Source: Giardia intestinalis (taxonomy: Eukaryota). From it: a stretch of DNA of 64,000 bases. Position numbers and translations under genes: made by a program. The DNA is taken from NCBI GenBank assembly GCA_000002435.2, contig CM018793.1, one strand, 5' to 3'. This document shows positions 50,281-51,327 of this stretch, piece after piece (positions within the stretch are counted from its first letter, which is position 1; each line of letters opens with the position of its first letter). The notes beneath the pieces are model-generated. The model saw nothing but the letters and a program-made list of their open reading frames with translations. It ran no database searches and was not told where the DNA came from.

Positions 50281-51327
50281 CTATACGAAGGTGCTCAGTT
50301 GTGCACGGGACACAGTAAGAGTCGAGCCATCATATGGGTCAGTTACTTCCGCCGGAGAGCGCGTCAGCTCGTACGCATAGGAGCCGCTTTGCGTAACGTT
50401 AGAGAACGAGCTCTGAGGAGTGTACTCGTCGTCGAGGTCGTAAAACTGCTCGTTGCTCTCTTGGATGTGCTTTCTGCGCAGCTCGATGAGGTACGTAAGG
50501 AGATAGCATACGACGTTGGTGAACGCGAGGATGAGCCCGGAGGTCATCAGCTGATACTTCTCGAAGTGATGAGCTACTTTAAGCTTCTCCATTGTCTTCT
50601 GGGAGCTGGCGGCGATGATGACGAAGATGAGCCCGAAGGAAAGACTGGTTCCAAGCACAGGAGCCAGGCTTCTCACGCACTTGTTTCGCGAGGTCACACA
50701 CGGGAGGCAGACGGTGAGGGTGAGGATCCACGCCACGCCCATGCACAGCGACGCATACCCGCTGTACTGGCCTAGCACGAAGACCACAGGGCTCATGGAA
50801 GACCTGTACCACTTTCCCAGTGAAACAACGGTGACAAGAAACGGCATTGCAAAGTAGCATATCAGGTCAACGAGAGCACAGTACCCCAATCCGATTGACA
50901 TGAGGTAGAAATATACAAACCCGTCCAGATCCTGGCAACCGTCTGTGCACGCGTCGTAGCAGTCGAAGCTTTCGCAGCAGTCACAGTCACAGTCGCAATC
51001 ACAGTAACAACAGCAATCGCAGCTGTCGCAATCGCAACAGCCGTGCTCCTTCAAGCATTGAAACCAGCTGATGGAGTGGGTGACGCCGTAATAGAGGACG
51101 AAAAGAATGAGGGTCATATTGACACCGACCCATATCTTAAAGTCGGTGCTGGCGGCCTCATCGAAGACGCACGCACCAAACTTCCTCTCCTCCTTGCTGC
51201 AGCGGTCTATGTGCAGCTTGACAGCCGTAATATTACGCGGCATAGAGCCTAGCGCCAGCGAACACAAAATGCATGGGAGCCCCACGAGCAGGAGCATCCT
51301 TATCCTTCCAGACCAGTAGCGCCCCAT
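50281..51327 (-). CDS. Multi-pass membrane protein with an extracytoplasmic Cys/Asp-repeat cluster (…HGCCDCDSCDCCCYCDCDCDCDCCESFDCYDACTDGC…); putative metal-binding, family unknown.
   Basis: ATG at 51327 in the context tttaaaaagaaattgaaggcATG. Signal/anchor MLLLVGLPCILCSLALG and at least 5 further hydrophobic helices. The DNA shows the tandem TGCGATTGCGAC-type repeat at 50950–51040. Confidence 0.65.
   Translation of the reverse strand: MGRYWSGRIRMLLLVGLPCILCSLALGSMPRNITAVKLHIDRCSKEERKFGACVFDEAASTDFKIWVGVNMTLILFVLYYGVTHSISWFQCLKEHGCCDCDSCDCCCYCDCDCDCDCCESFDCYDACTDGCQDLDGFVYFYLMSIGLGYCALVDLICYFAMPFLVTVVSLGKWYRSSMSPVVFVLGQYSGYASLCMGVAWILTLTVCLPCVTSRNKCVRSLAPVLGTSLSFGLIFVIIAASSQKTMEKLKVAHHFEKYQLMTSGLILAFTNVVCYLLTYLIELRRKHIQESNEQFYDLDDEYTPQSSFSNVTQSGSYAYELTRSPAEVTDPYDGSTLTVSRAQLSTFV

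Follow-up and report, generated by a model that had tools for sequence, protein, structure and literature searches.

The window analyzed here is a 64,000-nucleotide (64-kb) stretch of contig CM018793.1 of Giardia intestinalis (assembly GCA_000002435.2), and our subject is one gene within it and the cysteine- and aspartate-rich loop that this gene encodes. The open reading frame (ORF) at positions 50281..51327, on the minus strand, specifies a protein of 348 amino acids that is 100% identical to GL50803_003269 of Giardia duodenalis WB (XP_001704474, KAE8306021, UniProt A8BWB9), the annotation of which is hypothetical protein only. A preliminary description, made from the DNA letters and a list of ORFs, had placed the ORF at these positions and had called its product a multi-pass membrane protein; the placement was confirmed, and hydropathy gives about six hydrophobic segments, as a protein of that kind would have. 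The features of the locus, all on the minus strand and in the order in which they are transcribed, are as follows.

51334..51350, minus: AT-rich initiator-like element TTATTTAAAAAGAAATT, 7-23 nucleotides (nt) 5' of the ATG (read directly)
50281..51327, minus: complete coding sequence (CDS) of GL50803_003269, with the TAG stop at 50281-50283 (ORF list, 100% database match, ratio of non-synonymous to synonymous substitution, dN/dS)
51244..51297, minus: hydrophobic segment 1, residues 11-28 (hydropathy, alignment)
51139..51243, minus: loop 1, residues 29-63, with C43 and C53, predicted to be luminal or extracellular (alignment)
51076..51138, minus: hydrophobic segment 2, residues 64-84 (hydropathy)
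50980..51039, minus: variable half of loop 2, residues 97-116 (CCDCDSCDCCCYCDCDCDCD), holding most of the (CD)4C run, and also a weak 6-/18-nt repeat; the expansion is specific to assemblage A
50923..50979, minus: conserved half of loop 2, residues 117-135 (CCESFDCYDACTDGCQDLD), with the motif CC..FDCYD.C...CQ.L (five-lineage alignment)
50815..50919, minus: hydrophobic segment 3, residues 137-171; Asp154 (V-D), in mid-membrane, is invariant (hydropathy, alignment)
50689..50763, minus: hydrophobic segment 4, residues 189-213; next comes a basic loop, RNKCVRS, in which Cys217 is conserved (hydropathy, alignment)
50599..50667, minus: hydrophobic segment 5, residues 221-243 (hydropathy)
50479..50553, minus: hydrophobic segment 6, residues 259-283, followed by RRK (hydropathy)
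50284..50478, minus: C-terminal tail, residues 284-348 (alignment; predicted local distance difference test score, pLDDT, 24-34)
50276..50282, minus: AGTAAAC, overlapping the stop codon (read directly)

Judged from its conservation, GL50803_003269 is a real, functional gene, and our reasoning is that dN/dS is low, that promoter-like and poly(A) elements are conserved and that an identical loop is found in some 90 contigs. Between pairs of assemblage orthologues dN/dS is 0.05-0.34 over the whole gene and 0.08-0.24 over the helical core, with its peak in the C-terminal tail. The AT-rich element is kept upstream of the gene in lineages A, X, E and B and has a looser A/T-rich counterpart in lineage Y; from general knowledge of Giardia genes, we take it to be a core or initiator-type promoter, which it resembles. 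At the other end, TAGTAAA(C/T) is kept in all five G. duodenalis lineages, and AGTAAAC is presumably the poly(A) signal, as it fits what we take to be the Giardia consensus (AGTRAAY). The same loop is present in DHA2 (assemblage AII), in both NCBI accessions of the WB protein and in some 90 independent contigs from Logan and ENA, which disposes of the concern, raised at the outset, that the repeat length is a sequencing artefact. Plus-strand ORFs that overlap the gene (e.g. 50299-50775) have no supporting evidence and were treated as antisense artefacts because the constraint sits in the minus-strand frame; Rfam returned no RNA family in 49000-53100. A literature search with the gene, protein and orthologue identifiers found no mention of them. 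While the gene is already in the databases as a hypothetical protein, the family, the three forms of its cluster, the core motif, the lineage-specific lengths and the mosaic haplotype set out below do not appear in the searchable literature.

Three Arg residues precede segment 1 and the sequence ALG|S follows it, so that segment 1 is predicted to be a signal peptide or an N-in signal anchor. The two Cys of loop 1 (C43 and C53) are invariant among the 3269-type and G. muris proteins, and the features that are invariant throughout the family include Asp154 in the middle of segment 3, the sequence YSGYxxL...G..W that opens segment 4, and Cys217 after segment 4. The buried, invariant Asp154 hints that the six-helix core might bind or transport a cation. 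The 65-residue C-terminal tail is acidic, rich in Ser and Thr, free of Cys and predicted to be disordered, and it closes with a conserved ...SR.Q.STFV end.

The Cys/Asp loop within and between lineages

The loop between segments 2 and 3 (loop 2, residues 85-136) carries 17 of the 28 Cys in the protein (8.0% overall), and 16 of these lie in the 37-residue peptide HGCCDCDSCDCCCYCDCDCDCDCCESFDCYDACTDGC (residues 95-131, 50935..51045), a density of 43%. The preliminary description quoted this peptide exactly and gave its ten Asp correctly, but its count of 24 Cys was too high; it had also set the cluster between the first and second transmembrane (TM) helices, which would be true only if segment 1 were a cleaved signal peptide. 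Sixteen or more Cys in 37 residues would arise with a probability of about 1e-13 at the Cys background of this protein (3.9%) and, even at a VSP-like 12%, of about 2e-6. This region is the densest Cys window of the 64 kb, the five VSP/HCMP-like ORFs of the window (positions below) peaking at 8-9 Cys per 37 amino acids, about half as many. Its motifs are CXC (eight) and CC (four), where those neighboring ORFs use CXXC, and loop 2 as a whole has 14 acidic residues as against one basic residue.

In both protein and DNA the loop is less regular than had been proposed. The supposed perfect (CDC)n comes down to a single perfect run, CDCDCDCDC or (CD)4C, at residues 109-117, and the microsatellite-like TGCGAYTGC repeat is weak and imperfect: Tandem Repeats Finder reports a period of 6 nt with 5.3 copies (80% match, score 43) and a period of 18 nt with 2.7 copies (73% match, score 54). 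Codon usage in the loop is mixed (11 TGC and 6 TGT for Cys; 8 GAC and 4 GAT for Asp), at most two adjacent hexamers are identical, and the DNA string originally quoted is off by one base (TGT GAT... rather than TGC GAT...).

Orthologues were found in assemblage A (WB, DHA2), in assemblage E (P15, GLP15_4085; 76-79% identity by BLASTP or MAFFT), in assemblage B (GL50581_921 and others; 66%) and in three further G. duodenalis lineages, those of runs ERR3333379 and ERR3333383 and the one that we call X. The two run-named lineages might represent assemblages C and D, from dogs, of project PRJEB32663. Alignment of these proteins divides loop 2 into two halves that behave differently. The half next to segment 3, with the motif CC..FDCYD.C...CQ.L (WB 117-135), is invariant across five lineages, and between A and B its 19 codons show 10 synonymous and 2 non-synonymous differences. 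From this pattern of substitution we conclude that five Cys, two Asp, a Phe and a Tyr are kept at constant spacing by purifying selection; acidic residues adjacent to the loop Cys are also conserved. The half next to segment 2, on the other hand, varies in both sequence and length, and takes the following forms.

Lineage A: CCDCDSCDCCCYCDCDCDCD
Lineage E: CCDHDGCD
Lineage B: CCEHDGCG(NY/DC)DNNCD
Lineage of ERR3333379: NCNESNGCDSTCT
Lineage of ERR3333383: CCNDCDGCDDCDRCHD

Measured between fixed anchors, the loop is 48 residues long in A, 43 in B, 41 in the ERR3333379 lineage, 36 in E and 22 in X. All indels among the orthologues are in frame and, save for one of 2 residues, are confined to the half next to segment 2. 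Comparison across isolates, as had been suggested, gave a single length in each of the seven protein variants from assemblage A (which cover AI and AII and come from about 90 contigs) and in all 14 of the assemblage B variants that were read at full length (of 37 in the cluster). The predicted length polymorphism is thus real between deep lineages and absent among isolates of A or B, and this constancy indicates that the loop is not an actively slipping microsatellite; nor does it resemble a hypervariable coding microsatellite, its units matching each other at only 73-80% and close isolates showing no length differences. The WB repeat units have diverged from one another by synonymous changes, from which it follows that the expansion is old, predates the AI/AII split and is now stable. 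Judged from the same alignment, enrichment in Cys and Asp arose more than once, namely in A, in the ERR3333383 lineage and in the NY>DC alleles of B.

Two side observations concern individual lineages. Assemblage B has two classes of loop allele, GCGNYDNNC and GCGDCDNNC (seen on comparing P0004/P0015 with P0016 and others), that differ by two non-synonymous changes, both of which add to the Cys/Asp content. The ERR3333383 orthologue (L011:1150-2550) reads through the loop (CCNDCDGCDDCDRCHDCCQTFDCYD...), after which several frame shifts are needed to continue; it is either a pseudogene or the product of amplification or assembly errors.

Lineage X (P0002) is represented by four nucleotide-identical coding sequences from four runs (loci L001-L004; SRR445169, ERR15315897, SRR445170 and ERR13302886), together with ENA variants, and was compared with positions 49000-52500 of the window. 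Its loop lacks 78 nt (26 codons), half of the conserved core included, and the ORF is intact. Nucleotide identities on the two sides of this deletion are as follows.

X and WB: 86.2% over CDS nt 1-282 (5' of the deletion), 97.7% over nt 401-1047 (3' of it)
WB and P15: 86.5% over nt 1-282, 83.2% over nt 401-1047
X and P15: 86.2% over nt 1-282, 83.9% over nt 401-1047

The 5' part of X is thus as distant from WB as assemblage E is, and the pattern extends beyond the CDS, X and WB sharing 55-70% identity over 1.2 kb on the upstream side and 92-100% over 1.5 kb on the downstream side. Given this contrast, the repeat sits where haplotype segments of very different ages meet. Simple slippage, the mechanism first put forward for length change, does not account for the largest length difference, as the 26-codon deletion falls at the junction with a divergent haplotype. 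The junction in X could be the product of recombination or gene conversion at the border of a variable region rich in VSP genes. An assembly chimera repeated in several runs is less likely because the X cluster has sequence variants of its own. A second case of uneven divergence across the loop was seen between B and the ERR3333379 lineage (78% identity in CDS nt 1-282 and 67% in nt 401-1047). The region of about 1.7 kb upstream of the gene, 51328-53055, has no ORF of at least 150 amino acids on either strand and is also where WB stops aligning with the X and P15 loci.

Relatives in Giardia and membrane orientation

Relatives of GL50803_003269 were found only in Giardia, both when 5.8 billion proteins were searched by word index and when 1.84 billion representatives were searched exhaustively with a hidden Markov model, and the earlier suggestion of a Giardia-specific protein stands on both. 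Beyond the orthologues, G. duodenalis P15 has a paralogue, GLP15_818 (L009:946-1764, contig ACVC01000054.1), of 272 amino acids, about 29% identical and with the same helix layout. G. muris has a single gene, GMRT_11397 (P0035; 23-28% identical), and there is one more, muris-like relative (L005:186-935). One candidate, P0030, was considered as the orthologue of another Giardia species and rejected, since its contig shows it to be GLP15_818. With respect to gene context, GLP15_818 adjoins a Radial_spoke_3 gene, and the WB copy of the paralogue lies outside the window; on the muris-like contig an annexin (alpha-giardin-like) gene lies about 0.5 kb downstream of the family member, with one ORF in between.

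Every family member has Cys directly after segment 2, in one of three forms: (i) in G. muris, a hydrophobic Cys string, KCVLCCCAACCPCICCCFD (KCVLCCCAACCPCICCC), with 10 Cys in 16 residues and no Asp in the string, joined by a second cluster, KPCFCCGK, at the end of the protein after the last helix; (ii) in the paralogue GLP15_818, CCKCSKSQN, in which the CCKC is flush with TM2; and (iii) in the 3269 lineage, the acidic Cys/Asp loop, with its 17 Cys in WB.

Searches for more distant homology were negative throughout. A Pfam-A hmmscan of the whole protein and 7 family members, taken up to E=5, assigned no family and gave sub-threshold noise only; Ciart, SieB, DUF2070 and CASP_dom (one match, E=0.76) were set aside as such noise. 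PDB sequences held no relative when searched with the family profile and no match when searched with the loop peptide (E<=10), and a protein database search with the loop peptide alone produced no candidates. Structure comparison of the membrane core gave no usable fold match, the AlphaFold2 models available for it being of low confidence.

We consider it reasonably probable, from charge and Cys distribution, that loop 2 is cytosolic and loop 1 outside. Several features point to an inside location for both loop 2 and the C-terminal tail: the basic N-terminus before segment 1 and the conserved Cys pair in loop 1; the basic RNKCVR loop and the RRK after segment 6, both on predicted-inside loops, and a tail that is Cys-free and acidic; and, in the short-looped paralogue, 11 Lys/Arg inside as against 3 outside. 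The C-terminal KPCFCCGK of G. muris falls on the same predicted side as loop 2, and its CFCCGK resembles the palmitoylated cytoplasmic CRGKA tail of VSPs. Applied to the 3269-type orthologues alone, the positive-inside rule does not settle the topology.

Possible roles of the loop

We tentatively favor, at somewhat less than even confidence, the possibility that what began as a juxtamembrane Cys cluster on the cytosolic side has become a metal-thiolate-binding module, one that may also be S-acylated. Under this scenario GL50803_003269 would have five more membrane helices after its signal peptide or anchor, and the ancestral state would be a juxtamembrane Cys cluster after segment 2, of the S-acylated kind, that was reworked into an acidic Cys/Asp module in the 3269 lineage of G. 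duodenalis. The half beside TM3 (CC-x2-FDCYD-x-C-x3-CQ) would form a metal-thiolate/carboxylate site at the membrane for a soft or borderline divalent ion (Zn, Cd, Cu, Fe), and the variable half would be made up of CD/CDC units that arose by old in-frame unit duplications and supply extra ligands or capacity. The Cys nearest the membrane (C91, C97/98 and C217) may additionally be S-acylated; C91 and C97/98 after TM2, C217 after TM4 and the G. muris CFCC after TM6 all occupy positions of the acylation type, on what is predicted to be the cytosolic side. Our reasoning is that strong acidity together with a fixed-spacing Cys/Asp/aromatic motif fits a folded metal site better than it fits lipid anchors. 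A precedent is the ZntA transporter, which requires its cytoplasmic Cys/Asp motif CCCDGAC to bind Pb (PMC10800456). With regard to the original suggestion of a metallothionein-like loop, the composition agrees with it (CXC/CC motifs, and fixed Cys and most acidic residues in the half next to TM3), while membership of the metallothionein family does not. Cysteine rather than glutathione is the major thiol of Giardia, and for diplomonads it has been suggested that membrane proteins rich in Cys give metallothionein-like protection (PMC3916229).

A number of observations weigh against this scenario. No homology to metallothionein or to any metal-binding family was detected in Pfam-A or among PDB sequences. 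Lineage X, in 4 runs, does without 26 loop codons, half of the core among them, and retains an intact ORF, which implies that the large cluster is dispensable at least in X. The clusters of G. muris and of the paralogue have no Asp and suggest S-acylation more than metal binding. Lys/Arg counts in the 3269-type proteins are balanced or reversed with respect to the orientation proposed above (about 12 against 12 in WB; 11 inside against 16 outside in P15). The AlphaFold2 models are of low confidence, with pLDDT 40 (5 sequences) and 53 (7 sequences). Finally, expression of GL50803_003269 was not found in the part of the supplement text that was available for two proteomics and two RNA-seq papers, although this is not evidence of silence.

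What is shared by all family members, a cluster placed right at the membrane, would also be expected of a Cys string for multiple S-palmitoylation by Giardia DHHC enzymes, which would hold the loop between TM2 and TM3 against the cytosolic leaflet and govern sorting, any metal binding being incidental. The hydrophobic string of G. muris (10 Cys in 16) with its C-terminal CFCC and the CCKC of the paralogue flush with TM2 are in keeping with this, as is the variation in Cys number and spacing in the half next to TM2, which is expected of acylation sites. Giardia has nine DHHC proteins (PMC4109852), and there is precedent in the string of 12-15 Cys that is palmitoylated for membrane targeting in cysteine string protein (PMC4447612). 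In G. duodenalis, however, the Cys alternate with Asp, the loop is heavily acidic (14 residues to 1), and the strict spacing and conserved F, Y, D and Q of the half next to TM3 would be needless in a lipid-anchor string. An acidic loop is unfavorable next to an anionic leaflet and atypical of DHHC substrates. We regard palmitoylation as the main function as possible, if somewhat unlikely. The span of loop lengths (22-48 residues), the intact ORF of X despite loss of part of the core in 4 runs and the confinement of indels to the variable half could mean that the (CD)n part in WB is a neutral low-complexity expansion, and that only the short core, or nothing in the loop, matters. Against such neutrality, A, the ERR3333383 lineage and some B alleles (NY>DC) have each been enriched specifically in Cys and Asp, which drift would not predict, every indel is in frame, and AI and AII isolates alike have retained the expansion unaltered, even as its units came to differ by synonymous changes. 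We think this explanation rather unlikely.

The same loop placed on the luminal or extracellular side would be a small disulfide-knotted or metal-binding ectodomain of the VSP/HCMP sort, possibly host-exposed and with variation driven by immunity. A high Cys content is typical of Giardia surface proteins, the gene has VSP/HCMP-like genes for neighbors, positive-inside counts are neutral or opposite in several orthologues, and the variable half differs among host-adapted assemblages. However, the basic N-terminus and the hydrophobic segment that follows predict that loop 1, and not loop 2, is outside, and the short-looped paralogue strongly favors loop 2 inside. Moreover, the motifs are CXC/CC instead of CXXC, and there is no within-assemblage variation of the kind seen at antigenically selected loci. 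HCMPs are built of a large CXXC-rich domain outside the cell plus a cytoplasmic tail (PMC7461913), unlike this polytopic protein with its 8% Cys. This placement strikes us as distinctly improbable.

Returning to the metal-thiolate module, a more far-reaching version of it is that a membrane-tethered, metallothionein-like Cys/Asp domain, evolved from an S-acylated string and carried by an orphan six-helix protein with a conserved buried Asp, serves as a cytosolic metal buffer, sensor or transport gate, with the repeat acting in addition as an exchange junction between haplotypes (14% versus 2% divergence on its two sides). We consider this version doubtful. To our knowledge, Giardia is without glutathione, and we know of no metallothionein annotated in it. 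If the buffer, sensor or gate were real it would represent a new metal-handling architecture. Little is understood of the way Giardia deals with zinc, copper, cadmium and iron; free cysteine serves as its thiol buffer, and the zinc status of the host is perturbed. A membrane-anchored Cys/Asp metal module would, if confirmed, be an entry point to Giardia metal biology and a parasite-specific target or marker. The family shows how a juxtamembrane Cys string can be remodeled in three ways, to a hydrophobic string, to CCKC and to an acidic CD repeat. Lineage-specific loop lengths and the mosaic junction in the repeat could give a simple typing marker sizeable by PCR, and both also bear, in a small way, on the debate over recombination among lineages of Giardia. 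Should the loop be inert, the finding would reduce to a low-complexity insert in a hypothetical protein.

As regards the surroundings of the gene, the window has five long Cys-rich ORFs (10.7-11.6% Cys, 19-30 CXXC each), as follows.

18762-21050, minus: Cys-rich, VSP/HCMP-like ORF
27631-29430, plus: Cys-rich, VSP/HCMP-like ORF
40082-42022, plus: Cys-rich, VSP/HCMP-like ORF
53059-55470, minus: Cys-rich, VSP/HCMP-like ORF
56132-58312, plus: Cys-rich, VSP/HCMP-like ORF

The two that lie nearest GL50803_003269 match the Pfam VSP domain. With five such ORFs the window is VSP/HCMP-rich and probably part of a variable chromosome region. At 25232-25537 (minus strand) a frame of 102 amino acids contains the run CLCGICCCCIC, with 8 Cys per 37 residues; this frame is probably fortuitous or antisense.

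Comparison with known systems

GL50803_003269 shares with VSPs and HCMPs, its genomic neighbors, that it is Giardia-specific, Cys-rich and membrane-anchored. It differs in that theirs are large extracellular CXXC-rich domains with about 11-12% Cys (PMC7461913 and the ORFs of the window), whereas this protein is polytopic and has its Cys concentrated in one 50-residue loop. In HCMPs, which are type I single-pass proteins (PMC4109852), multiple CXXC (and CXC) motifs lie outside the cell and the tail is cytoplasmic (PMC7461913). Membership of the VSP family is contradicted by the lack of a PF03302 match, which neighboring ORFs do have, and by the six segments and STFV end; membership of the HCMPs fails on the polytopic layout, the 8.0% Cys and a total of 7 CXXC, and the gene was not found in the part of the HCMP-paper supplement text that was available.

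DHHC palmitoyltransferases have a Cys-rich, Zn-binding cytosolic loop (the DHHC-CRD) between TM2 and TM3 of a protein with 4-6 TM segments. The position of the Cys-rich loop is alike in GL50803_003269, which nevertheless has no DHHC/DHYC, DPG or TTxE motif and no Pfam match to zf-DHHC (PF01529). As for metal transporters, neither Pfam nor the structure comparison of the core gave a match to CDF/ZnT, ZIP, P1B-ATPase, CTR, VIT or NRAMP. Plant HMA2 and HMA4 carry CC-rich metal-binding tails. ZntA of E. coli is similar in having a cluster of Cys and Asp on a membrane protein, its cytoplasmic motif CCCDGAC contributing to the binding of Pb, Zn and Cd (PMC10800456). Unlike the P1B-ATPases, GL50803_003269 has no P-type ATPase domain or transporter signature, and its membrane core is an orphan fold.

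Dense membrane-adjacent Cys are also a feature of cysteine string protein (DNAJC5) and of the VSP CRGKA tail, to which the CVLCCCAACCPCICCC string and CFCCGK of G. muris look very similar (PMC4447612). The differences from DNAJC5 are that no DnaJ domain is present (no Pfam match) and that the WB loop is strongly acidic, with half of it at fixed spacing. Metallothioneins are alike in several respects: the loop has 43% Cys over 37 residues, is dominated by CXC/CC, is likely cytosolic, is of low complexity and has gained length by unit duplication. Unlike them, it is embedded in a polytopic membrane protein, it is rich in Asp and has aromatic residues (Y, Y, F), which classical metallothioneins avoid, and it matches no metallothionein family, no metallothionein profile having been hit in the Pfam-A scan described above. 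In composition (16 Cys in 37, CXC/CC) the loop would nonetheless fit the functional class of metallothioneins, in this case as one loop of a 348-amino-acid membrane protein.

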